IMG/VR virus record: IMGVR_UViG_3300028805_000051
Coordinates: 107,394-171,393 of that record
Reading direction: 5' to 3' (one strand)
Source: a virus
Lineage: Duplodnaviria > Heunggongvirae > Uroviricota > Caudoviricetes
DNA: 64,000 bases
Shown here: piece after piece, positions 13,537-44,757 of the stretch
How positions within the stretch are numbered: the first letter of the stretch is position 1
Layout of the letters: each line of letters starts with the position of its first letter
The notes under the pieces: generated by a model
Databases searched by the model: none
What the model saw: the letters and a program-made list of their open reading frames with translations, nothing else
What the model was told of the DNA's origin: nothing
Program-made: the position numbers and the translations under genes

Positions 13537-14451
13537 TCAGCGTACATTTTCATTCTAATTAACAGAATGTTCCGCACTCTTGGGAGGATTATTACTCTCA
13601 TTAACGTTCACCTCCTACGCGTTACGGTGCTCAGCGATTAACTGAGTTACCTCGGTATCAACATAATGATTAAACTTATTATATTTTCTCGACAATCTAA
13701 AAATTGAATCATCATAAAGAATATGATACAAAGCGTCAGTTACTTTTTTACTAGCAGTACATAATCTATACATCTAATCTCTTTTTATATAATTTATATT
13801 CATAGAAATTTCATATTTTTCTGCTAACCATTTTTGAAATTCCACTAATAATGTACTAGTTTTAGCCTCTATTTGAACACTTGTTCTTATTGTCCAATTA
13901 ATTTCTCTATTTGCTTTATTAGGTTCGTGTATATAATAAGTAAAACAACCATCTCCATCAAAATAACCTCTAAAGAAATGTCTTACTAATTCTTCTGGCA
14001 TTTTAGGAATATGTAATTCCTTGTAAGTTTTTCTTTCAACAATTCCTAATTTATGCAAATCTTCTATTAAAATTTTACTAGCAATATTAAGTCTTATACT
14101 TGATTTATTTTTTACTGTTTTTCCTCTAACAGTAGCTAAAGATTCAGTACCTGAAAATTCTTGAACATAAGCATTAGGACTTATCATTTTAAAATATTTA
14201 AATATTTCAGCATCCTTATCATTTATATGAATAGAAAGTGTATGTCTTTCATCATTAATAGATCCATCTGACATTATAAATCCTAATAAATAAGCTTGTA
14301 ATTCAGTTTTAATTTCTTTAAAGAAATCATGTCTTATTGCTCTTTTGCTAGTTCCATTTATATATAATGGACAATTTTCTTTTAAATAATTTAATTCTTC
14401 AATTCTTGTCATACGATAATTCGTTTTAAGTTTAATCATATTAGCCTTCAC
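13537..14451 (-). CDS. LAGLIDADG homing endonuclease (two LAGLIDADG motifs). It reads through the TAG at 13774 and a second TAG, ending at a TGA at 13537-13539.
   Basis: Motifs LLGFIMSDGSI and FRGYFDGDGCF. After the annotated TAG at 13774 the frame continues for 78 codons of plausible sequence (MYRLCTASKKVTDALYHILYDD...) to a TGA. Total 915 nt. Confidence 0.65.
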
Positions 14452-21838: not shown

Positions 21839-22029
21839 CTTTTAACGTTATTAAATAATTCTAATTAAACAAATAAATACAATTCGCAGTAAGCCGAATC
21901 TAATAAACTTGTTCTAACCTTTATCTATTTTGAATTTACTAAAATTAACTGTATTATTAGTTAAAACAAAATTAAAGGATATAAAGAATGAAAGTTTAGA
22001 TAAATTTAAACAATTTCAATGATGATGTT

Positions 22030-23673
22030 TTGCCACATCTTGAAGATAATACTTCTAATGGTTATTTTTCTCAATTAATTCCTATGGGAAAATTGGGGAT
22101 ACATATTAAAAAGAAAAATAGGGGTTCTTTTACTTCATATTGTGGTGGAAAAGTTACTGATGCTTGTATACAAAAAGGAAAAAATAGTTCTAATCCTGTA
22201 ACAAGAAAAAGAGCAACTTTTGCAGATAATGCTAGAAAATGGAAACATTAGGAAGGTGGTTCTTTAATCCCGGGAATAAACTATAAAAGTATTAGTAATT
22301 TATTTGTAGATACGGATCAAGCACCTGTTTATGATCCAAAGAGTAATAAAAAGAGTAAAAAAGATAATGTAGATCCTCTTTTACAAGACTTGTCTGTATA
22401 CTAGTAGCCTAAAAGAACTTATGATTTAAGTTCTATTTATAATAATAGTATAGAAGACCACTAGGAAGAACCTTGGTATAATACAGTTTATCATGAATAT
22501 CAACCTTCTTCTAAAACACCTAGTATTAGTCACGATAGATTAATGGCAGCTATTACTCCTCATTTAGGATTTAAAGGTTCTCTTGGACATTATGATTGTT
22601 CTAATTTTGTTTCTCGTATTTTAGGAGATTTAGGATATAATTTATCTGGAAATTGTAGAACACTTTATGCTAATACTGATAGAGTAGATTTACCTGATTT
22701 AAGAGTAGGGGATTTAGTATTTAAATAGGACACACAAGGTGATAGAGTTCCGCATGGTTAGGCTAGTCATGTTGCTATTGTAACTGATGTAAGTAGACTT
22801 GGTGAAGGAATAATTCAAGTAGCCTAGGGAAGTGCTTCTGGATCAAAAACTTAGATTATGGACTGGAATTTAAATAATATGTCAAATTATTTTGGTGCAG
22901 GCAGAATACGTAAAGGTAAACAAGGATTTAAATTTCAATTAGGAGGATTATTAACCTCTTTACCTACACCACAAAGATTTTCTCCAGATAATTTCTTTGA
23001 AAGTGAAAATGAAATTAGTAATGAACCATTAAATATTTCTTTTTAGATAGAAGATGTTCCTCCTTTATTTGAGCAAAAACGATAGTAGTAGCAAGCTTTA
23101 ACTAATAATGAAGAAGATAATGCTTGGTATACTAGAGTGTATGCTCCTAAAAAGAAAAAAAGTAAATTATTGACTCCATCTGAAAAACATTATTCTGGCA
23201 AAGGATATAATTTCTTTAAATAGGAATTTGATAAATATTTATCTATTGATCCTTCAGCAAAAAAGTATGAACAAGTTTTAACAGACATTGCTAATAGAGA
23301 AAGTAGATTTAATTTTGGAATACAAAATACTGCTGGGGCTCCTGCTTATGGATGTTTCCAATTCTGGCAAGATGGTAAAATAAATAATATTACTCATTAT
23401 TCTGGATTAAGTGTTGATGAATTCCTTAACAATCCTCAAGCACAAATTGCTGCTGCGGTTAAATTGGCAAGAGATATAGAAAAAAGATTTAATTCAGAAG
23501 ATTTAAGAATTGCTAATGCAAGAGGATATGATATGAATGCTTTAATTAAAGGAGCATGGTTAGGAGGAATTGGTGGAGTTAGAAAAGTATTAAGAGGGTT
23601 AGGTAATCCTAGTGATAGTAAATGGTACGGTGGAAAAAGTGGAGCAAGTGTTAAACAAGTAATGGAATCATAA
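22030..23673 (+). CDS. virion-associated peptidoglycan hydrolase with an NlpC/P60-CHAP-like Cys/His region and a lytic-transglycosylase-like region; 547 aa with about 16 in-frame TAG, including three consecutive
   Basis: A single frame joins ORF track fragments 22030, 22543, 22858 and 23464, all with position mod 3 equal to 1, and ends at a TAA at 23671-23673; 1644 nt. Motifs: HYDCSNFVSRILGDLGY...HVAIVTDV and AYGCFQFWQDG...GAWLGGIGG. The TAG-TAG-TAG run is at about 23086-23094. Confidence 0.5.
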
Positions 23674-23688
23674 TAAATATAAACTTAT

Positions 23689-25350
23689 ATGAAAAAATTA
23701 ATTAAAAAATACTAGTGGGGAAATATAATGGTTCCTCCAGTCCCAGGAACTACCCCAAGTAATAGCGATTAGATGGGAGCTATTAATTATTATAATTAGC
23801 AGCAAAGTTAGATACCCATAATAAAGCAAAAAGATGCTGAAAGAAAAGAAGCTGAGGCAAAAAAAGCCTACGAAAGACATAGAGGATATATTGGGCCAGA
23901 TAAAAATCCAAAATCTTATAAAGAAAGAGAAAATGATGCAAGAAGAAATGAAATTAATTATATGGTTCAAACTAATCCTTATCATCAATGGATTTCTGAT
24001 CCAAATGGTACTGGTTCAATGTAGGCTGCTGTAAAAATAATGCCTTAGGTTATTGAAACAACTTAGAATTATTTTAATAGACCAGTAGGTGAAATTTTAA
24101 AAGGAGAGGCAAGAACTTTAAATCATGCACTTAATCCATTTATGGTAACTGATGATGCATTTTAGAGATCAAAATATTATATGCAGCATGGTTAGCCTGT
24201 TTTAGGAATGTTAAGTGGGTTTGGTGGATTTGGTTTAGGTACTTTAAGTGCATTTCCTTTTGCTACTCCAGTAAAATCTGGAATTGGTTATACAGTGAAT
24301 GCTGGAAGAAAACTTGGGAGACAAATAGCTAGTGATTACACCAATTGGGTAAATTCAAATATATCTCAAGGATTGCGTTTAGGTAGTGATTTAGGATTTA
24401 CTCCTCAGTTTCAAGTAGCTGGAACCAATTTTAATTTAAGAGTCACTCCAGAATTAACTTTTGGAAGATTTAATACAATGAACAGTGTAGGACAAAATTT
24501 CTGGAATACACTTAGAGGTAAGAATAAAATTGTTGAAAATGCTGCCCCTGGTCTTGAGGCTCCAACTGGTAATGAGGCATCTTTAGGAAAATTGGCTCCT
24601 ATTTCAAACAAGAATGGTAATGTTCCTGTATATACTAAATCTCCAACTAAAAAATATTTCTTATCAGATGAAGAAATTTCTGATCCATCTTTAGTAACTA
24701 AAGAAAATAATGTTTCGTATATAACAGACCATGGTAATGTAATTTATAATCCAGAATTAGTTACAGAAGAAGTAGCTGGCAAACCTGTGTATAAGTATAA
24801 TGGTAGAAAAGTTACTCCTAAAACTACAACTGCTTATAAATATAATGGTAAATATTATCCAGAAGCTCCAATTGAAAAAGAAATTCCTGGAAAAACTCAA
24901 TTAAATGTTGGAGATGATTTACCTCGAGATGCTATATATTATGATTTTGAATCATCATCATATTAGCCTATTAATGGTGCAATATTTAGAAGACCAGGAG
25001 GCCGTGCATGGAATAGATGGACATATGCTAATGGATAGACTCCAAAGGGTTTTAAGAATCCTTGGATTTTACATACTACTATAGCTCTTCCACTCGTAAC
25101 AGGATTAGTTGCTGGTCATAAACCTATATTTAATTTTATAGGAAATAGGGTATACAGTCTTAGACAAGGAACTGGATTATTTGGTCCTGGAAGACCTAAG
25201 AAAACTCCAGTAAATAATAATTCTTCAACTGAGAATACTGATAATGGTTCAACTAGTACTACTGATACAACTACTACCACACTTCCTGTAATTGATACAG
25301 CAGCACAAAATTAGCAAGCTAATGAATTATTTAAAGAATTTGGTTATTAA
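23689..25350 (+). CDS. hypothetical virion protein, 553 aa; about 14 in-frame TAG
   Basis: Codon walk from the ATG at 23689 through ORF track fragment 24208..24966 to a TAA at 25348-25350; 1662 nt. Confidence 0.5.
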
Positions 25351-25355
25351 CTAAA

Positions 25356-25396
25356 TAAAAGCCCATTCTCTTTAATTAGGGTATGGGCTTTTTAAA
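25356..25396 (+). terminator. rho-independent terminator
   Basis: Hairpin aaagcccat...atgggcttt followed by a T-run. Confidence 0.55.
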
Positions 25397-25407
25397 TATA
25401 ATAAATT

Positions 25408-27234
25408 ATGATGAAACTAATACCTAGATTTAAAACTGGATATAAAACTCCTGATTGGGATCCTACAAATCCTTATCATTATCATACAGAAGATGGTAAG
25501 AAGGTTGTTATAACTCCTGAAGATTGGAAAGCTAATGTAGGCAAACCTTACTTTAGAGAGATCGAAGCTGCTGTTAGAGCAGAACAAGCTGCTCATCCCG
25601 CACCTGAATATGAAGTAAATCCTACTTTTGTTAGAGACTTAAGAAGTACTTATCAGTATAACATGGGTAATGGTTATTAGAACTATAAATATTTCAGCTC
25701 AGCTCTCCCTCAAGGATACAGTTTTACAGATGAAGGAATGATAGTAGATCCACAAGGTAACTATTACGTACAATCTGGTTATAGACAATCTCCTAGATTT
25801 ACTTATAGTACAGATAATCCTTTACAATTTACTATCAATAAAGGTAAACCTATTGAAAGAAATCTTACATTCTATCCTGTTAATATGGATAAGAGAGTTA
25901 AAGCACCTCTTCCTGTTGACAAAACTTTAGATGTTAGTAAAGAATATGAAAACGCAGTAAATCTTTTAATAAAAGATAATACAACATCTATAACGAATAA
26001 ATCAACTCCTATAAATATATACAAATTCCAAAGAACAAATAAATATGATAATATTAATGGAAATCCTGTAATTTTCTATCATGCAGACGTTCCATCATAT
26101 CCTATTTCAGAATTAACTAATAAACAAAATTACAGTCTATTTTATACTAAACCGGAACTTTATAAAACTGTAAATGTTCCGTATGATTTAAATAGAATAA
26201 GAAAAGATAATCCAGATTTGGCTATAGATTTTGAAAGATGGATTCAACAAGGTGCTGAAGACCAATCGTATCATTATGACAAACCATGGTTTGAGCAATT
26301 TGAAAAATATAAAACTGGAACTTACATTAATAAACCTTCTCGTCAAGAAGCTGAGAAAAAGGCTGTAATATCTATTAGTCCTTTAGAAAAAGTAAAGACA
26401 TTTGCTAATGGAGGACATTTGTTTCAAAAAGGAGGAAAAGTTAAAGGGTATAAATTGTCTTCTAAACTAATGCGTTTAGCACAAAAATTTGCTGACAAAG
26501 AAGCAGCAAAGCAAAATGAAGAAGAAGGTAATGGAGCTCCTCAATCAACTTTCTTAATGAATAGAAAAAATTAGCAAAAAGTTTTTGAACAAGAAGGATA
26601 CACAAAAGTAGATAGCGATAACTATGGTCCAGTAACAAATGCTGTGAAAAATAGTAAACATAAAGATGTTCCTATTTATTAGAAATATCCTGATGTTGAT
26701 GTGGATAGAAGTAATTTAGTAAAAATTGGAACATTTATGGATTATGCAATAAAAGGCGTACATGGTGAAACAGAAATATATAGTGGTCCTTATGAAAGTT
26801 ATCTTACAGACCCAGCTAATTTTCCAGTAGATATTTATATTGATAGAAAAACTGGTAAAGTTTATAATCAAGGTTGGGATTTTAATGACTATAATAATCT
26901 AAGAAGTACTACTGATATATCAAAATTAAAGAATATTGCTGGTAATGTACTTGATAGAATTGGAAATCCCACTGTAGTAACCACTGGATTGTAGGAAAAT
27001 GAAAATCCTCCAAAAGAAATAATTGATGATTATATAAGTAAAGCTTCTAATGGATTTTTATAGTATAATTCAAATGATGGACAAATTCAATTAAAGCCAG
27101 TTACTATCACTGCTTAGCGTACTAATAAAAAACTAATCCCAAAAGAAACAAAAGATCTACCTACTACTGGAGAATTTAGAAATATGAGTGCAGATCAATT
27201 GTTTGATTGGCTAGAATAGAATAGAAAAAAATGA
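25408..27234 (+). CDS. hypothetical virion protein, 608 aa; about 9 in-frame TAG
   Basis: Joins ORF track fragments 25408, 25738 and 26701 in one frame and ends at a TGA at 27232-27234, which overlaps the next ATG; 1827 nt. Confidence 0.5.
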
Positions 27235-27554
27235 TACAGACTAAAATAAACGGTCATGAGATTACCATTACAACTAATAATATCAATATAAAAGATTCCT
27301 ATTTAGTTTGGAATCCTTATGATATGTATGATATGTTAGATAAAATAAAAGTATTCTTAAAAGAAAATAGCATTACTATGGACACACCTCTTAATCATAG
27401 AACAAAACTTTCAATGATAAGAGAATGGATATCACATAATAATGCTTATTACTTAGGATATAAAAAAGATCAAGCGTGTAATGTAGATTTAAACTATCCA
27501 CAAAAATGGTATGTTAAAATTATTTATTTCTTTTGTAGCTTAATAAGATTATGA
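27231..27554 (+). CDS. hypothetical protein, 107 aa
   Basis: ORF track entry. ATGA overlaps at both ends. No TAG. Confidence 0.5.
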   Translation: MIQTKINGHEITITTNNINIKDSYLVWNPYDMYDMLDKIKVFLKENSITMDTPLNHRTKLSMIREWISHNNAYYLGYKKDQACNVDLNYPQKWYVKIIYFFCSLIRL

Positions 27555-29560
27555 CAAAATTAATTCCACGATATTAGCACGGAAACCCATTTTTAATAGA
27601 TAAATCTTCAATTCCTGGAACAAGCCCACAGACATCAAGTACGATTAATTATAATTGGGAATAGCGTGCTGCTAATAATGAATCAGTTAAAAAAGCTGAA
27701 CAAGAAAGAGCACAACAAGCATATTTAGATAGACGGGGATACATTTCTGAAGATAAAGATAAAAGAAGTTATGCCCAGAGAGATGTAGATGATAAAATAA
27801 ATGCTACAAAAAATGCTAAAACGGATTTTTATAGTATGGGTGCTCCTAATTCACAAAGTACTGATGTAACTCCTAAACAAGTATTAATACCTGCATTTGT
27901 TGCCGGAACTACATTTATAAATCCAGTAGCTTCTCTAATATATGGCGGTATGTACGAACCTATGGAAAAAGCAGGAGTTTATCAGCCAATTAGTTTAGGT
28001 CTACAAAAATTAGGAATGAATGAAGATGCTGCAAATATGACATCTTATTTTGCTACTGATTTAGGTATAGGTTTATTACCAGTTGTCAAAAATAGATTTA
28101 TCAATGCCTATAATAAAGCATGGAATCAAACATATGGTAATTTAAATAATCTAGGTATAAGTCCTTTCAGGAGAGTGACAAAAAATGTAAATAAACTTGT
28201 AAAAAAACCTTCCAGAAATTATTATCCAATAGAGGAAATGGCAAACAATATAGCAGAAAGAAGAGCTCCAAATACTTATACTAAATATGTAAATCAAGAA
28301 GCTATAGATAATGGGTATGAAACATATAGGAATGCAGTAAATAATGCTGCAATAGATAATATACAAAGTATAGCTAATGCTAGAATTAATTTTAGTAAGT
28401 TAAAGAAAAGAACTACACAAGAATTAAATGATTTTAATAAATTATTAACCATATCTCCTGAATATGGAATATTTTTATCATATAACCCAACACTCGATGG
28501 TCTCTCACAAGAAGCAATAGATGCATTCATAGAACACCAAAGTCTTAGTGTTAGAGGTATAGGTGTTCAAGAGAAAATACCTAAAACTACTACAGGAGCA
28601 GGTTATGTTAGAGTACACAATGCATCTGCAATAAACGATAAAAAAGCAGAAAAATTTTTAACAACACCACCAGAAAATCCTTTAGACAGATTAGGTAATA
28701 GAGGGCTTTATACTTCTAATGGTAGATATATTGCTGATAAATTTATGAGACCAGAAACAAATGGGTATAACTCTGCGTCTTATCAAGGAATAGTACATTA
28801 TGACTTCAACATAGATAGAAGTAAACCTTTAGAAGAACAACTTAGACAATATAGAAGTAAAATAAGAAATTACGATTGGGATATAACCGATCCAAGAGAG
28901 GAAATGATTGAGGCTACTTATGTTAAAAGTGGTGAGGGGGCTACAAAGAATATATATGAAAGATCAATAAACCCAAAAGGAGTGGATAAACCTGTAGTTA
29001 ATTTAAGGAAGCTTCAATATTTCGGTAAAAATCTGCCTAATTTACATGGTCGTTGGGGGTTAAATGATCTTAGTGCTGTTAGTGATCTTGATTTATTTAT
29101 ACCAAAACAACCTAGTCGCTCATTTGGTGAATTTTTAAATTTTGCTAGAAGATTAAAATCCACAAATGAATTTACTATAAAAAAGCGTAATCCTAATTAT
29201 TCTGCAGAATATTCTAATGCTTATGGTATACTGAAAAGTCAGCTTGAAAAGCGTGATAAATTAGTTAGACAATTAGAAAAGAAACATAACTTTGTAACAA
29301 AAAGCTTAAAAAGCTTATTAGTGACACCAATAGTAGGAGGTGTTGGTGCAGCAGTGGGACTTATTAAAGCATCAAATGATCGGCAGAATAAATGGTATAA
29401 TGATCATGCTATAGAACTGAGTGAGATAATAAACAAAGAATTAGGCAATGAAAAATCATATAAAGATATGACAGATGAAGAATTCGAAAAACGTTTGGAC
29501 CAAGAACATGAAATAATAGAGAGGGAATATAATAAATACAAAGAAAGTCTTAAAAAGTAA
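27551..29560 (+). CDS. hypothetical virion protein, 669 aa; 2 in-frame TAG near the N-terminus
   Basis: The ORF track entry 27836..29560 extends upstream in-frame through 2 TAGs to an ATG at 27551; 2010 nt. Confidence 0.5.
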
Positions 29561-29943: not shown

Positions 29944-30117
29944 AATTAATGTGTTACACTAAGTTTGTTCATTCTATCCATAAAATCTAAAAATTCTTGC
30001 TCGTTGGCAAGTCCATTTTCTTCGCAGAACTCTATTACTTCTTTAAAATAGTGTTCTACAGTTGCCATAAATTTAATTGGTAATTTATTATTCATATAAC
30101 ATTAACATTAACATTAG

Positions 30118-30188
30118 ATGTCCGCCCAGGACTCGAACCCGGAAATGGTGGGTTAGAGCCACCCGTTTTACCATTAGACTACCGGACA
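30118..30188 (-). tRNA. suppressor tRNA, anticodon CUA (reads UAG); possibly Gln-type (U1:A72)
   Basis: Reverse complement: TGTCCGG TA GTCT AATGGTA AAAC G GGTGG CTCTAAC CCACC ATTT CCGGG TTCGAGT CCTGG GCGGACA T. Cloverleaf with anticodon loop CTCTAAC, giving anticodon CUA. Confidence 0.8.
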
Positions 30189-30590: not shown

Positions 30591-30981
30591 ATATTATTTA
30601 TTTATTTAATATAATTAATTATAACTAACATTTTCCAATTTTCAAAGTAATTTGAAAATTTTCGAAAAAATGCTAAATTATTTTCAAAATTTCAAAATCA
30701 GTAAAGCAGAAAATATAAAATATAATATTTATAACCACTTTCCTTTAATTAATAAATTATATACGAGAATTTTCGTAATTCCAAATACTTCCAAAAATTT
30801 CGAGAAAAAGCATGCTTTCTGAAATAATAGCCCCCCTATATTCACCCCCGCCCCCTATTTTCAGAATTCGGAAAATTATTTCCAGAATTTTTTTCAAGGA
30901 TTTAAAAGATTTTTAAAAGGAATTTTCAAAATATGAAAAGTTATAGGAGAGGGAGGAGACATATGTCTTCGACCCCCGGGC

Positions 30982-31000
30982 TTAATGCGTAGGAAATTGA
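30982..31000 (+). promoter_or_regulatory. conserved promoter-like motif, copy 1 (TTAATGCGTAGGAAATTGA)
   Basis: One of 3 copies of TAAT(A/G)CGTAGG(A/C)AAAT found upstream of the GC-rich-codon genes. It also shares a downstream TTCATTCATTYATTAATCAATTAA box with copy 2. Confidence 0.45.
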
Positions 31001-31084
31001 TATGAATTGTTATATTTAAGTGTGAAACGTTTAAAATACGTTACGCGTTTTCATTCATTTATTAATCAATTAAATTCAACAACA

Positions 31085-31522
31085 ATGAAGAACACATTCA
31101 ACAAAGAAGAGAACACTTACACTATTAGTAAGGAAATGATGAACTGCTTTAAGCAATTGCTGTTTACTACCAACGGAGAGGGAGTGAACTTGCAAGGCAT
31201 CATCTCGGACATCACTTGCGGAGAAGAGGACGACCTCGTTTCGTGTAAAGTCGCTTTTGCTTTTAAGGGCATCAAACCCGCAATTAACAAAGCACCTCGT
31301 TTTGAGTACGGCTATCGTTGCTATTATGCTTACGAGGTCGTAGATTACTCTATGATACTTGATAGTTACAAGTGCATTAAAGGTCGCTATGATTGGGATA
31401 AAGAAACAAAGTCCTTTGTTGCAAGAGAAACCGAAGAACCCACTATGTTTTCCGCTGACTTCATCAACTCTCTGCCTACTAAACTTGATATATCAAAAGT
31501 TAGAGGAATTGAAGAGCAATAA
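31085..31522 (+). CDS. hypothetical early protein with GC-rich codon usage
   Basis: ORF track frame; start moved to the ATG at 31085. Confidence 0.5.
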   Translation: MKNTFNKEENTYTISKEMMNCFKQLLFTTNGEGVNLQGIISDITCGEEDDLVSCKVAFAFKGIKPAINKAPRFEYGYRCYYAYEVVDYSMILDSYKCIKGRYDWDKETKSFVARETEEPTMFSADFINSLPTKLDISKVRGIEEQ

Positions 31523-31541
31523 CATCATCATTAATCATTAA

Positions 31542-31570
31542 GGGAGGGCACACGCTCTCCCTTTATTTTA
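31542..31570 (+). terminator. rho-independent terminator
   Basis: gggagggcacacgctctccc followed by TTTATTTT. Confidence 0.5.
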
Positions 31571-31584
31571 TTATATATTTTTTT

Positions 31585-31606
31585 GTAATACGTAGGAAAT
31601 TATAAG
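31585..31606 (+). promoter_or_regulatory. conserved promoter-like motif, copy 2 (GTAATACGTAGGAAATTATAAG)
   Basis: See copy 1. Confidence 0.45.
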
Positions 31607-31688
31607 TAATTTGTTATACGTTACACGTGTTACACGTTTTTCATTCATTCATTCATTAATCAATTAACATTAAAAGGAGGAATTTATT

Positions 31689-32198
31689 ATGATTACTAAC
31701 ACACAATCCACTGTTTCCGTCAGCACCAACGCCAACGATGCACTGAACGCTCTGAAAGCAGCAAAAGCAACACATCCGTTTCGTGGAACAGGGTTCAACG
31801 GCATCGGTTTCGATGATAACGAGATAATACGCTCGTTTGAAGGAATTGGTTTCCCTACTTGGGAAGATGACAAAGACGCCAACAAGAAAGGCACCTATAT
31901 TGTGGTGTCTTTCAACGGCAAGAAAATTGCCCTTAATTCATTTATTAAGGACAAATATTTGTTAAAACCGAGTGGGGAGTTGGAAGAGTGGAAACAAACC
32001 GAGGGATTTGCCAAATTTGTGCGAGAACACCCATTTCGCCCAGATATGACTGAAACTGAATTACTTAACACCATTAACGCCTACAATGCGGAATGCACTC
32101 GTTTGGCAGCAAGCAGTGCTAAATTCAGTGCTGTCTATGGTGTGAGTGTTCAAGGTGGTTACGCTCATCAAGTCGGTAAATTCAGCATTATTGGCTAA
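31689..32198 (+). CDS. hypothetical early protein with GC-rich codons and a strong RBS
   Basis: ORF track entry; AAGGAGG lies 8 nt upstream of the ATG. Confidence 0.6.
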   Translation: MITNTQSTVSVSTNANDALNALKAAKATHPFRGTGFNGIGFDDNEIIRSFEGIGFPTWEDDKDANKKGTYIVVSFNGKKIALNSFIKDKYLLKPSGELEEWKQTEGFAKFVREHPFRPDMTETELLNTINAYNAECTRLAASSAKFSAVYGVSVQGGYAHQVGKFSIIG

Positions 32199-32211
32199 AT
32201 TCCGACATTTT

Positions 32212-32256
32212 AAGGACTTGCAGTTATGGTAGTGGACTGCAAGTCCTTTTTTTTTC
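32212..32256 (+). terminator. rho-independent terminator
   Basis: aaggacttgcag...ctgcaagtcc followed by a T9 run. Confidence 0.7.
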
Positions 32257-32293
32257 TTTTGTAATATTTCCAAAAAATTCGTAATATTTCTCT

Positions 32294-32310
32294 GTAATAC
32301 GTAGGCAAAT
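32294..32310 (+). promoter_or_regulatory. conserved promoter-like motif, copy 3 (GTAATACGTAGGCAAAT)
   Basis: See copy 1. Confidence 0.45.
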
Positions 32311-32440
32311 GTATATCGGCTCGCATATTTTAGGCGAGAAATGTATTAACATTTTCAAAACGTTGACTGCTGGAAATAGACAGCTTTGATTGAACTTTTT
32401 TTTAAAATTACATATAAGTTTAATTTAAATTAAATCAAAA

Positions 32441-33025
32441 ATGATTACAGTTAATCAAGAAATGATGAATGCCGCTCTTGAGCAGCACAAGCTCCCTGAA
32501 GGTACAACTCCTGAACAGCTGATTGCCCAGTTGAAAGACCGTCCTGTGGTGAATATTCAGGAGAACGTATTTGAGGAAGGTGACACATTCACAATGCCTG
32601 CAAATGAGGCTGAGCTTGCAAAAGTTCTACGTGTGGAGAAATTTGATCGTCTTGCTAGAATCGACAATGAGGGCAAGAAGGTTGTTCCTGAGGGATTCTA
32701 TGCCCTTGTCTACACTGAGAACCCCAAGACCAACATGAAGGCCGTTAAGAAATTCCGTGTCACATCGGCAACTGCTTCCTTTAACGAGTATGCCAAGGAT
32801 CCTGTGAATGAGACCTATTTGGCAAACGGTAAGGTTGTCAGAAGTGAAGGTGATGTTGCAACTCTGCTCCGTTCTAAGAGTAGTCAGTATGAGCAATTTA
32901 CTGCTCTTCTCGGCAAAACCATCACTACCAAAGCTCCCCTTGTTGGCAATGCAGCTGTTATGGAGAACCAGGTTCCTAAGGGAATCCGTCGTCGTACCAT
33001 TGCGAATTTCGCCTTCACCGAATAA
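32441..33025 (+). CDS. hypothetical early protein with GC-rich codons
   Basis: ORF track entry. Confidence 0.6.
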   Translation: MITVNQEMMNAALEQHKLPEGTTPEQLIAQLKDRPVVNIQENVFEEGDTFTMPANEAELAKVLRVEKFDRLARIDNEGKKVVPEGFYALVYTENPKTNMKAVKKFRVTSATASFNEYAKDPVNETYLANGKVVRSEGDVATLLRSKSSQYEQFTALLGKTITTKAPLVGNAAVMENQVPKGIRRRTIANFAFTE

Positions 33026-34138
33026 TGTCCACACTTAAGTGTGTATTCGGCAGAGTTATTGGAGATTACTCATTAAAAGTGGGTGATCTCCAATACTTTG
33101 TGGACAATGGACATATGTATATGAATGAAAGAGGATTTTTCTTAATTGAATTCATCTCTGGAGTTATGTATCATATTGTCCGATTTCTGCGATATTAATG
33201 AATGAATGAAAGTGTAAACATGTATTGTTAGTAATCATGTACATACGGGTGAGAACGCAGACTCATCCTTCCCACTGAACTCTGGGGTTTTTACTTTAAG
33301 CTCCAGAGTTCAAAGTATGGGAATGTATATACTTTTCCAGAATATACAAATTTTCCTAAATAGAATTTTTTGGGAAATTTTAGAAATTTTTGGAAATTTT
33401 TGAAGTTTCATAGAAATTATAAAATTTACATTTAATGCAGCCTTGGAAACACTTGTTTTCCATGAAAGTCACAAGCCTTTGTAAATGCAGAGTGAATGTA
33501 AACTTTTTAACCTGCGGGTAATCCCTATAAACTCGTCACAAAAAGGTTTAGCTAGGGTGATAACACTATAGATATTAGAGTGGTGTATGACAACGGTTAA
33601 CCTCGTTGTAAGTGAGTATAAAATCCTCAAAAAGTATCTAGTCTTGTAGTACTCTCTAAATGGAAAGGATATGAGGATTTTAACTTGCGAATTATATTTT
33701 CCTCGCTAGTTTGCCGGGAAAATTTTCAGCGGATAGAAAGATTTGCATATTGCAAATTTGCCGCTTCTAATTATGGGTAAACAAGGAAATTAAGAGTACT
33801 TTTGCCTAACAGAGCAACTATCTGGAATCTGTAATCGTGTTAGTCAGCACGTTGGGAATCCGAAGAGTATTGGTCTGCAACTAATATCTCTGGGTAGATG
33901 AACAAGACATTTTAGAATTGCAGCTCTAAATTGTCGAAATTTTGGAACATAGGTGGAAAATGACAATCTACATTCGCGACTATGTTCTTTTAAGGTTGAA
34001 ATTCCTTGAGTTCTTACATTATTTGAAAGTGTTAAGAATCTCTAAAATCTCCCATATGAGAATACCTTGACGTGGTTTGGGAGCTTTAAACTAATATTCT
34101 CAAAATGAACACAAGTAAAACCGCAAAAATAAAATAAT

Positions 34139-35441: not shown

Positions 35442-35567
35442 TTATTTATTCCTGCAGGATGCTAAGGGTTTGCATCCTGTCTTAATGTAGCCAATGACGG
35501 TCCAAAGCCCGTATGAGAAATTACAGATGGAGAAAAAATACAGTATAACATCAAAAAACTAAGCACA

Positions 35568-35808: not shown

Positions 35809-36231
35809 ATGAACCAGAACACAGTAAAGACGATACGCTTGGCCGTGGCGTATGAAAATGAATACGGTCGCATTCTCTGGAATAGAGAATGGCGAATTTT
35901 CACTGTTGAAATTGATGGTGAAACTGAAGAAGAACGCAAAGATAATATCAAGCAACTTCTGGAGATTCTTCATGGAGAAATCCATGACTTCAGCCAGATA
36001 GTGTATGGCGACTTTGAGAATGAGCAGGCTCGTGATGCTTTTACTAAGCGTTATGAAGTAGAGCTCTTTATGTCTGACCCAGACACCCATATCGTTATGG
36101 ATCAGGGTGAATGGAATGCACAAAAAGTTGCTATGAGGGAAATGGCTGAACAAATGTTAAAGGATGTTCTAAAAGATCATCCGGAGATGATCAACCATAT
36201 TCCTCCAGAACTACGCCACCGCTTTAAATAA
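35809..36231 (+). CDS. hypothetical protein with GC-richer codons
   Basis: ORF track entry. Confidence 0.5.
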   Translation: MNQNTVKTIRLAVAYENEYGRILWNREWRIFTVEIDGETEEERKDNIKQLLEILHGEIHDFSQIVYGDFENEQARDAFTKRYEVELFMSDPDTHIVMDQGEWNAQKVAMREMAEQMLKDVLKDHPEMINHIPPELRHRFK

Positions 36232-36248: not shown

Positions 36249-36328
36249 TGCTTTATCAGGTTAGAGAATCGCCCGTGCCTTTGTTTGCGTAAGTACGGAA
36301 GTCGTTGGTTCGAGTCCAACTAAAGCTC
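36249..36328 (+). tRNA. tRNA-like gene, about 7 nt over-length (possible small insertion); identity unresolved
   Basis: Acceptor tgcttta pairs with taaagct; T-arm is gttgg ttcgagt ccaac. Confidence 0.3.
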
Positions 36329-42181: not shown

Positions 42182-42321
42182 GCTCCTATAGCTCAATTGG
42201 TTAGAGCACTTGACTGTATACTGGGTAGTTCCAGAGAGAGACTTAATTCAAGGATATGTTAGAAGTGATTTTAACATATTCACTAATCAAGGGGTTCTAG
42301 GTTCAAGTCCTAGTGGGAGCG
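42182..42321 (+). tRNA. tRNA gene interrupted by an insertion of about 66 nt in or next to the anticodon loop, or an oversize variable arm
   Basis: Canonical acceptor gctccta/tgggagc, D-arm gctc aattggtta gagc and T-arm ctagg ttcaagt cctag. The anticodon stem cttga is followed by ctgta, and two candidate tcaag partners lie 34 and 75 nt downstream. Confidence 0.45.
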
Positions 42322-43443: not shown

Positions 43444-44757
43444 ATGGAAACAAACAACTTAGAAACTCGCCGAAGTGAATTGGAAATGATTTTTAGTGAG
43501 AAATCCACTGAAAATGGCGATCGTGCTTTTGATTCTACTGGCAATAAACTTGTTGATATTCTGTTTATGTCAGAGTATTATACAAACCATTTAGATCAAG
43601 TACCTCACATTGGTGATTCTCACGTTGCTAAAATCTTCTCTATGTTCATGCGTGATCCACGATTTGGTATGGGTCGTAGAGAGTTAGGTCGCCACTTAAT
43701 GGCAGCTACAATGCTCACACCGCAGCAAATTGTGATGGCAGGTAGATATGATGATTTGTATCTTATGCCTGCTTGCACTATGGAAAATCTTCGTTTCCTT
43801 TTTAGTGAAGTAGAGAAAGGAAATGAACTTGCCAAAAAGTGGATGCCTCGTTATTCTAGCAAACATCTTGCTATTGCAAGACACTTTGCAGGTATACTTG
43901 GAATGAACAAACAACAGTATGGTCATTTCATTAAAGCAAACACTGTTGAAAATACTATGAGCCGTAAACAATGGGAATGTATTGACTTTAGTCATGTTCC
44001 TTCATTGGCTGCTATCAAATATGCTAAAGCTTTTCAAAAACATCAACCTGAAAGATATGCTCAATATATTGAGGATGTTAAAGCAGGTAAAAAAGAGCTT
44101 CATGTAGCAACAACTAATGTATACGATATCTACAAAAATCGTACTAATATTGATGCTGATGTATTCTATGGGAAGATAGAAAAGATTAATATATCTTGTA
44201 TTCCTATTATTGATACATCTGGATCAATGAATGACAATGACGCTATTGGAAAAGCACTCTCCATTGGTAAATATCTGTCTGACTGTTCTAGCTATTGTAA
44301 TGGACAATTCATTACATTTAGTCAATGTCCTCAATTGATTACTCAACGTGGAGATACATACAATGAGCAAATCAAGAATATTCTCTATGATGGTAGAAAT
44401 TGGGGAATGAACACTGATTTTGGCGCTGTAATGAGAGTACTTAGTAACCTCAAAACTGATTTCCCAGACTATCTTGTAGTGATGTCTGATATGGAATATG
44501 ACAGAGGCAGTAACTGTGAGAAAGACAAATTGATGGCAGATTGGGCTAGCAAAAGAATCAAAACTAAAATTATCTGGTGGAATTTCAATGCTCGCAACAA
44601 AACAGCTCCAGAAACTGACCAATATGGAAATGTATTCATGTCTGGTTATTCACCTATGATGTTGAAGTATATGGAAGTAGGATTTGATGCTCATCAATTC
44701 CTTCAGAAACTTCTTGGTGAATATGTTAAGAATATGGGTGTTAAATTTGAAGACTAA
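43444..44757 (+). CDS. vWA (MIDAS DxSGS) domain protein; DUF2828-like; possibly Ro60/TROVE-related
   Basis: IPIIDTSGSMNDND matches a MIDAS motif; the N-terminal 250 aa are alpha-helical. Confidence 0.55.
   Translation: METNNLETRRSELEMIFSEKSTENGDRAFDSTGNKLVDILFMSEYYTNHLDQVPHIGDSHVAKIFSMFMRDPRFGMGRRELGRHLMAATMLTPQQIVMAGRYDDLYLMPACTMENLRFLFSEVEKGNELAKKWMPRYSSKHLAIARHFAGILGMNKQQYGHFIKANTVENTMSRKQWECIDFSHVPSLAAIKYAKAFQKHQPERYAQYIEDVKAGKKELHVATTNVYDIYKNRTNIDADVFYGKIEKINISCIPIIDTSGSMNDNDAIGKALSIGKYLSDCSSYCNGQFITFSQCPQLITQRGDTYNEQIKNILYDGRNWGMNTDFGAVMRVLSNLKTDFPDYLVVMSDMEYDRGSNCEKDKLMADWASKRIKTKIIWWNFNARNKTAPETDQYGNVFMSGYSPMMLKYMEVGFDAHQFLQKLLGEYVKNMGVKFED

Follow-up and report, generated by a model that had tools for sequence, protein, structure and literature searches.

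We analysed a 64,000-nt stretch of tailed-phage DNA (Caudoviricetes; IMG/VR record IMGVR_UViG_3300028805_000051, positions 107,394 to 171,393), hereafter the window, concentrating on three neighbouring genes and on a short conserved sequence, the box, that precedes each of them. The segment 30984-33295 is best explained as an array of three autonomous expression cassettes in an AT-rich phage (window GC ~30%). The order within each cassette is constant, i.e., a box of 15-19 nt, an AT-rich leader of 70-145 nt, an open reading frame (ORF) that belongs to no known family, and an intrinsic terminator. The genes, all on the + strand, are gene 1 (31085..31522, 145 amino acids (aa)), gene 2 (31689..32198, 169 aa) and gene 3 (32441..33025, 194 aa); the ATG start of gene 1 (31085) is backed by homologues. 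A further ORF of 57 codons (33025..33198, +) overlaps the stop codon of gene 3 (TAATG), has a GC content at third codon positions (GC3) of 0.33 and is conserved at the protein level in relatives.

The 15-mer AATRCGTAGGMAAWT has exactly three matches in the window, at 30984, 31587 and 32296, and TAATRCGTAGG is found at 30983, 31586 and 32295, in all cases on the + strand. The three copies of the box are AATGCGTAGGAAATTGATA (30984..31002), preceded by the GC-rich segment CCCCCGGG, AATACGTAGGAAATTATAA (31587..31605) and AATACGTAGGCAAATGTAT (32296..32314). Copies 2 and 3 begin with TAATACG and copy 1 reads TAATGCG, with a G at position 5; the first-pass annotation, which had described a near-identical motif some 90-150 nt upstream of each gene, was accurate on both counts, the distances from the motif start to the ATG being 102, 103 and 146 nt for genes 1, 2 and 3. 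A search for the motif, which the same annotation had suggested as a check, yielded over the 64 kb these three sites only, all in front of genes and on a single strand: no additional site appeared when two mismatches were allowed, and 100 dinucleotide-preserving shuffles gave no match to AATRCGTAGGMAAWT. Each box starts 7-50 nt past the T-run of the preceding terminator, which leaves no space for another conserved promoter, and the sequences upstream of the three boxes are mutually unrelated. Because the terminators close before it and the upstream sequences are unrelated, the box is the sole candidate for a shared promoter. Apart from tRNA T-arms, no other conserved intergenic motif was found in the window; a recurring 11-mer, TTATTGGAGAT, turned out to be coincidental.

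It should be noted that GTAATACGTAGG (31585-31596 and 32294-32305) is identical to a segment of the 530-loop of 16S rRNA of Gram-positive bacteria (GCGGTAATACGTAGGTGGC), and that the G variant AATGCGTAG (30984-30992) matches the conserved 16S segment GAAATGCGTAGA. A literature search with the box sequence returned printed 16S rRNA sequences only; Bacteroidota 16S rRNA has CGGAGG at the corresponding place of the 530-loop. The 12-nt identity is probably a coincidence, a functional role being a more remote variant.

The leaders of units 1 and 2 have two features in common. First, each contains a small tri-loop hairpin: in unit 1 (31015..31035, +) a 9-bp stem with a GAA loop (TTTAAGTGT gaa ACGTTTAAA), and in unit 2 (31616..31630, +) a 6-bp stem with a UAC loop (ATACGT tac ACGTGT), located within GTTACAC repeats. 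Second, the two leaders share sequence, as the annotation had stated for the region near the ribosome-binding site: TTCATTCATTYATTAATCAATTAA is present in both, and so is the segment TTCATTCATT...AATCAATTAA. In unit 1 the common segment is TTCATTCATTTATTAATCAATTAA (31050..31073, +); in unit 2 it begins with TTCATTCATT (31640..31671, +) and is followed by a strong AGGAGG Shine-Dalgarno sequence (31675-31680). The claim of a strong terminator behind every gene held for two of the three units. Unit 1 ends in an intrinsic terminator with a 10-bp stem (31540-31563) that includes six G-C pairs, followed by a T-run (31540..31572, +), and unit 2 in AGGACTTGCAG...CTGCAAGTCC plus T9 (32213..32258, +), with a longer stem round the core at 32234-32246. 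In unit 3 a terminator-like hairpin with a T-run (33270..33295, +; stem 33270-33287) is weaker than terminators 1 and 2 and lies only past the 57-codon ORF.

Sequence searches of Pfam, PHROGs, PADLOC, NCBIfam and PDB gave nothing significant for the four products (genes 1-3 and the 57-codon ORF), and no match was found among defence and anti-defence models or solved structures. Profile-profile comparison revealed no sign of paralogy among genes 1-3. For gene 2, a confident predicted structure has no fold neighbour; for gene 3, a low-confidence model has weak OB-fold-like matches only. The proteins of genes 1-3 are soluble, with isoelectric points of 5.0, 6.8 and 7.9; since they are not strongly acidic, they are not classical DNA mimics.

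Relatives, box conservation and cassette turnover

Using 14 related contigs from independent metagenomes (L001-L012, L035 and L036), we collected 25 distinct copies of the box. The positions AAT.CGTAGG.A..T are invariant in 25 of 25 copies, and sequence further upstream and downstream is far less conserved; the consensus with biased neighbouring positions is (G)(T)AAT[A/G]CGTAGG[A/C]A(A)(W)T(R)TA. Judging by this alignment, the box is under strong purifying selection. It precedes genes in relatives whose gene 2 protein is only 26-34% identical: in L035 and L036 (gene 2 homologues 34% and 29% identical) it stands before each gene, and in L007 highly diverged genes 2 and 3 follow intact boxes. 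The distance from box to ATG varies from 69 to 144 nt through gain and loss of leader segments; thus, the box is not a translation-initiation signal.

The gene content of the array varies among these contigs. Gene 1 is missing from L001, L002 and L004, in which a single box joins the sequence found upstream of unit 1, together with the G variant, to the sequence found downstream of the unit 2 box, indicating a crossover inside the box. An unrelated gene replaces gene 1 in L012, and an extra gene of 108-113 aa with its own terminator is found between units 2 and 3 in L006, L007 and L012. Cassettes are thus lost, replaced and inserted at box boundaries.

The tri-loop hairpin of units 1 and 2 recurs in most relatives, with a stem of 5-12 bp and a 3-nt loop, and starts 23-36 nt after the beginning of the box. 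In unit 1 the stem contains two G.U pairs in the window and is fully Watson-Crick in L003 (TTTAAACGT-gaa-ACGTTTAAA); such retention of pairing through G.U suggests an RNA hairpin rather than a DNA one. The gene 2 leader of several relatives also contains an insert of ~65 nt (L001 1715-1786, with equivalents in L002, L003, L004, L006, L011 and L012) that has no counterpart in the window, which has the strong Shine-Dalgarno sequence described above instead. The insert contains a hairpin with three compensatory pairs, CCACATTG/CAATGTGG versus CAACGTTG/CAACGTTG, as well as an invariant CAAACAATAGTCCGAAAAGGCGGGCAAGGGG tail, and it may be a regulatory RNA. The leader hairpins kept through G.U and the three compensatory pairs are modest evidence that the DNA downstream of the box is transcribed.

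The protein families of genes 1-3 are tiny: of 5.8 billion clusters, only 7-9 fall to each. When gene 2 was used for an exhaustive profile search of 1.84 billion representatives, four real ones were recovered; all of them sit in loci of this kind, and this speaks against a recent acquisition. The block, gene 3 and a flanking 128-aa gene had no match when the GenBank phage collection was searched at the DNA and protein levels, and a neighbouring HD-domain gene had a single weak and unrelated match there, in a Vibrio phage. Protein-seeded scans of IMG/VR with all three genes gave no match either; a box scan of the same database produced 22 single matches, all unrelated to the window, i.e., the chance level. 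Among 119 single matches in a box scan of JGI metagenomes, the only relatives were L068 and L125 (the latter identical to L005), both short.

Codon usage and phage affiliation

The GC-richer codons that the first-pass annotation had pointed out in the genes at 31085, 31689 and 32441 were confirmed: GC3 is 0.45, 0.43 and 0.45 in genes 1-3, compared to 0.08-0.16 (~0.13) in late genes and 0.10-0.29 in most of the other genes, including most other rightward ones. The shift is confined to coding sequences, which have 40-46% GC versus 25-30% in the spacers of the block, the latter being like the rest of the genome. Comparing the three genes to the late genes, usage rises for AAC (71% versus 11%), TGC (83% versus 14%), CGT (60% versus 15%) and GAG (52% versus 10%), and falls for TTA (7% versus 60%), ATA (14% versus 40%), AGA (20% versus 76%) and GTA (6% versus 43%). 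This codon-specific shift has the signature of translational selection. Within four-fold boxes, C-ending (NNC) codons increase from 3.4% in late genes to 26% in the three genes. The phage tRNAs found in the window for four-fold boxes carry U34 (Thr, Gly, Ser, Ala, Pro, Val and Leu) or A34 (Arg-ACG) and none carries G34, so that NNC codons would depend on host tRNAs. Genes 1-3 all stop at TAA and lack TAG codons in frame, but TAG serves as the stop codon of several of their orthologues in relatives.

Orthologues on the related contigs have GC3 of 0.37-0.65, and at 31-74% amino-acid identity only 34-57% of codons are identical at conserved residues. Recent acquisition of the block is therefore unlikely, because the bias has been kept although about half of the synonymous sites have changed. 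There is indirect support for the view that selection on the coding sequences maintains the codon shift, in agreement with translation by the host tRNA pool and with high expression. Thus, the earlier proposal of host-matched codons and high-level expression is upheld in part, by way of the bias confined to coding sequences, the rise in NNC codons and the persistence in orthologues. Two genes without a box also have raised GC3, namely 35809-36231 (+; 0.40) and 51684-52481 (+; 0.39), the second of which matches a PHROG transposase family (E-value 5e-75). As a clue to the host, this transposase-like gene found no relative in a scan of one genome per bacterial and archaeal species.

The source is an AT-rich gut or rumen phage that reads TAG as an amino acid. 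Positions 1-29560 hold virion and packaging genes, including those for the portal (PHROG 6547), the large terminase (PHROG 6681) and a protein with NlpC/P60 and SLT domains; the late and structural ORFs of this region are long only if TAG is read as an amino acid, the total ORF length increasing from 10,495 to 16,160 codons. A tRNA with the anticodon CUA (30117-30188, - strand) adjoins the early block, and 26 more tRNA genes lie within 38-63 kb. An AT-rich intergenic region of ~500 nt (30591-31084) divides leftward genes from a long rightward set, with the cassette array just to its right. Judging by its large terminase, which shares 27-31% identity with those of crAss-like phages and 45-56% with those of two unannotated human-faecal phage records, the phage appears to be related to the crAss-like group. 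MT835470, the nearest complete relative in GenBank (large terminase 45% identical), has a gene order unlike that of the window, the standard code, no bimodal GC3 and no box, and is too distant to be informative. Shine-Dalgarno-like sequences precede only 8 of 44 genes; such scarcity fits a Bacteroidota host.

Possible roles of the box

Given what is observed, namely the anatomy of the array, a deeply conserved box, a codon bias under selection and cassettes that turn over, we favour, with slightly better than even confidence, a model of three promoter-leader-ORF-terminator cassettes that have a dedicated promoter box, are tuned for immediate, high-level translation by host tRNAs, and occupy a locus evolving by box-mediated exchange. 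We infer the promoter activity, the position of the start site and the early timing as follows. The box would be the promoter, or the specificity element of the promoter, for these three units only. Transcription would probably start within ~30 nt of the beginning of the box, placing the hairpin at the 5' end of the mRNA. The proteins of genes 1-3 would be made first and in quantity, with host tRNAs, before the phage tRNA array and the TAG suppressor tRNA are expressed. The repeated box would double as a point of recombination, giving rise to loss, replacement and insertion of cassettes.

Several points weigh against this model. The tri-loop hairpin is missing from unit 3, the leaders taken whole are no more stably folded than shuffled sequences (z 0.67, 0.33 and -1.16), and the extra 108-113 aa cassettes of L006, L007 and L012 carry at most a degenerate box. 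The count of three sites applies to 64 kb of the genome and may not hold genome-wide. Calling the codons "host-like" appeals to the usual pattern of translational selection rather than to a measured adaptation index. Among the window's ORFs of at least 300 aa, all of which were scanned except a 2452-aa tail-fibre-like one, none was recognised as an RNA polymerase gene; neither the 608-aa nor the 669-aa virion-type protein has a relative in PDB, and the only hint of a polymerase is a single DVDVD motif in the 608-aa protein. Finally, early transcripts of the crAss-like phage phi14:2 are made by a virion polymerase without a common upstream motif (Drobysheva et al., 10.1101/2020.03.07.982082), and a simple transfer of that model is therefore unwarranted.

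As to the enzyme, the candidates are a virion-delivered or phage-made polymerase and host RNA polymerase acting together with a factor. The consensus of the Bacteroidota primary sigma factor (TTTG at -33 and TAnnTTTG at -7, ~19-21 nt apart) has no + strand match in the window and is not enriched over a Markov control; a loose TTTG...TAATTTG is present in unit 2 only. We consider it possible, if rather doubtful, that the box is recognised by a virion-delivered polymerase (a crAss-type virion RNA polymerase or another enzyme) and not by the host primary-sigma holoenzyme. If true, this part of the phage world would gain its first immediate-early promoter class defined by sequence, and the three codon-optimised proteins, of which at least one apparently has a new fold, would be the earliest products serving host takeover or anti-defence.

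Instead of a promoter in its own right, the box could serve as an operator or as the site of an activator, adjacent to a weak element of the -10 type (TRTAWA, box positions 15-20), much as the MotA box does in T4 middle promoters; a phage protein would then switch the genes on or off, and immediate-early timing would not be required. Positions 15-20 of the box region do read RTAWA, directly after the invariant block, and, if RTAWA is a -10 element, the box would occupy roughly -27 to -17. However, no regulator was identified, the -33/-7 elements of the Bacteroidota primary sigma factor are absent here, and genes that are adapted to host tRNAs and lack in-frame TAG would suit expression ahead of any phage functions; we consider this explanation unlikely.

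The box might also act in RNA, as an element of the 5' leader (a processing site, translational operator or stability element), the true promoter being located upstream. For the unit 2 leaders of relatives, RNAalifold predicts pairing between the box and the region of the start codon, without covariation, and the unit 3 box can pair with the ATGTAT after it. However, none of the compensatory changes involves the box, the leaders are not unusually stable, a terminator T-run ends 7-50 nt ahead of each box, and the three upstream sequences are unrelated; such a role is quite improbable.

The remaining two explanations concern the origin of the block and the T7-like start of the box, and both had been raised by the first-pass annotation. 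That the GC-rich block came in recently by horizontal transfer from a donor of higher GC content (host or phage), with the motif as a leftover of that donor, would agree with its GC content (reaching 37-41%, versus ~30% for the genome) and with the finding that the relatives are on short contigs only, which break at the AT-rich flanks; it is very unlikely, however, given that the spacers of the block are as AT-rich as the remaining genome, that the bias is conserved across orthologues with near-saturated synonymous sites, and that no homologue outside the phage lineage was found among the 5.8 billion clusters or the 1.84 billion representatives. We give almost no credence to a T7-type promoter served by a single-subunit phage RNA polymerase, since the likeness to the T7 consensus ACTCACTATAGGG comes down to the 7 nt TAATACG of copies 2 and 3, with copy 1 deviating, the leading T is variable in the 25 copies of relatives (T 17, A 6, G 2), the other 9-12 conserved positions (TAGGMAAWT follows) are unlike the consensus, and no T7-like polymerase was found in the ORF scan described above.

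We return to the dedicated promoter box as the preferred reading. The start of infection is poorly known in crAss-related gut phages and in phages that reassign stop codons; in phi14:2, the one case studied, no early motif was found. The present locus supplies a candidate promoter that is short, strictly conserved and easy to test. In the same reading, codon usage would mark the three genes as made first and abundantly, and hence as priority targets in the search for host-takeover and anti-defence functions.

Neighbouring elements and known systems

AT-rich repeat fields (TTCCAAAAATTTCG / GGAAATTTTTGG, TTCCAGAA) flank the array at 30640-30940 and 33330-33410 in inverted orientation; further AT-rich repeats are located at 32263-32281 and 33928-33950, with one copy ~30 nt upstream of box 3. 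Most of the related contigs that bear gene 1 have their starts clustered in the left field (30854-30922); the right field holds the ends of two contigs. These fields might be protein-binding sites, an origin or a genome end.

Just downstream of the array is a type-P1 twister ribozyme (33429-33498, +; 61.8 bits, gathering score 67.2, E-value about 1e-12). The same syntenic spot is occupied in L001 (3448-3515) and L003 (2574-2642) by a RAGATH-1 hammerhead (43-45 bits, E-values 1e-4 to 4e-5); thus, different classes of self-cleaving ribozymes are found at one position. The ribozyme is followed by an ORF-free stretch of ~640 nt in the window (33499-34138) and ~850 nt in L001, and directly by a gene in L003. 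A second, weaker twister-P1-like match (35479-35534, +; 39 bits, E-value 5e-5) is found in the gap between the HD-domain gene and the small ORF that comes next.

Other RNAs and proteins were noted further away. A tmRNA-like match in the tRNA array (50691-51292, +) is just below the Rfam gathering score (45.5 versus 47 bits, E-value 8e-15) and was not reported by ARAGORN. A weak match to a Y-RNA-like RNA (YrlA; 62029-62163, +; 35.5 bits, E-value 5e-4) and a 437-aa protein (43444-44757, +) with DUF2828/DUF7788 domains, which matches PHROG 850 ("RNA-binding protein"), might be a Ro/Y-RNA-like pair. T-arm-like sequences, GGTTCGA(A/G/T)TCC, were seen outside the ARAGORN tRNA calls at 36307, 42149, 51511, 54629, 58180 and 62058, and two long Rfam "tRNA" matches (42182-42321 and 62374-62494) may be interrupted or degenerate tRNAs. 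Next to the large terminase gene, a 300-aa ORF (13537-14439, -) with LAGLIDADG-like motifs recognised by eye (LLGFIMSDGS, FRGYFDGDGC) is probably a homing endonuclease. The region 21988-29560 (+) codes for four large proteins of virion type (553-669 aa), which are likely to be ejected or internal; the 561-aa member has the NlpC/P60 and SLT domains, three of the four have the common N-terminal motif M(x)KLI(P/K)(R/K)(Y/F), and one has the DVDVD motif mentioned above.

The array can be compared to several known systems. Like T7-class promoters (TAATACGACTCACTATAG), the box consists of one conserved block, of about the same length, and two of its copies agree with them in their first 7 nt; the remaining sequence differs, the shared T varies in relatives, and no single-subunit RNA polymerase was recognised among the window ORFs scanned. 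The T7 consensus itself spans roughly 23 nt, from -17 to +6, and includes a specificity region and TATAGGG at the start site.

Phage phi14:2 belongs to an apparently related phage group, and its early region adjoins a highly structured non-coding RNA, as the array does here; in contrast to phi14:2, the present locus has a strict motif, and a gp66-like (virion RNA polymerase) gene was not found within the 64 kb. A further comparison is with the early promoters that the virion RNA polymerase of coliphage N4 recognises (reviewed in PMC4496689). In N4 they are a clustered handful in front of the first genes, and the signal contains hairpins with a stem of 5-7 bp and a 3-nt loop. The boxes described here are likewise clustered, and units 1 and 2, in the window and in most relatives, have tri-loop hairpins. 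However, these hairpins are downstream of the box and partly kept through G.U, which suggests RNA and not extruded DNA, unit 3 has none, and no gene for a giant virion RNA polymerase was recognised in the window.

It is known that phages rich in tRNAs and recoded at stop codons split decoding between host and phage tRNAs. The present phage resembles them in that its putative early genes can be decoded by host tRNAs under the host code, and its late genes use phage-favoured codons and the reassigned TAG. The difference is that the extreme contrast is limited here to three genes, whereas most other TAG-free genes of the same strand stay AT-rich (GC3 0.10-0.29). It is a very clean case of partitioning between host and phage tRNAs inside one genome.

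The closest parallel in organisation is found in the PeSL (promoter-early stem-loop) cassettes of the hyperplastic regions of T4-type phages, in which short, conserved modules of a terminator and an early promoter are repeated between non-essential genes without families, and single genes are deleted, replaced or inserted by recombination between the repeats (Arbiol et al. 2010, PMC2839356; Comeau et al. 2014, PMC4122927). This locus has the same repeated architecture, with terminator and box between family-less genes, and gene gain, loss and replacement via the repeats are seen here as well, in the crossover of L001, L002 and L004 and in the changes of L006, L007 and L012. The differences are that PeSL promoters are sigma-70-like and belong to T4-like myoviruses, whereas the box is neither sigma-70-like nor of the Bacteroidota -33/-7 type, that the units here have only the box in common and not the terminator stem, and that the promoter activity of the box is putative. 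New here are the box as such and the protein families, and the type of organisation is already known in phages; cassette shuffling of the PeSL kind, familiar from T4-type phages, would thus be at work in an unrelated lineage.

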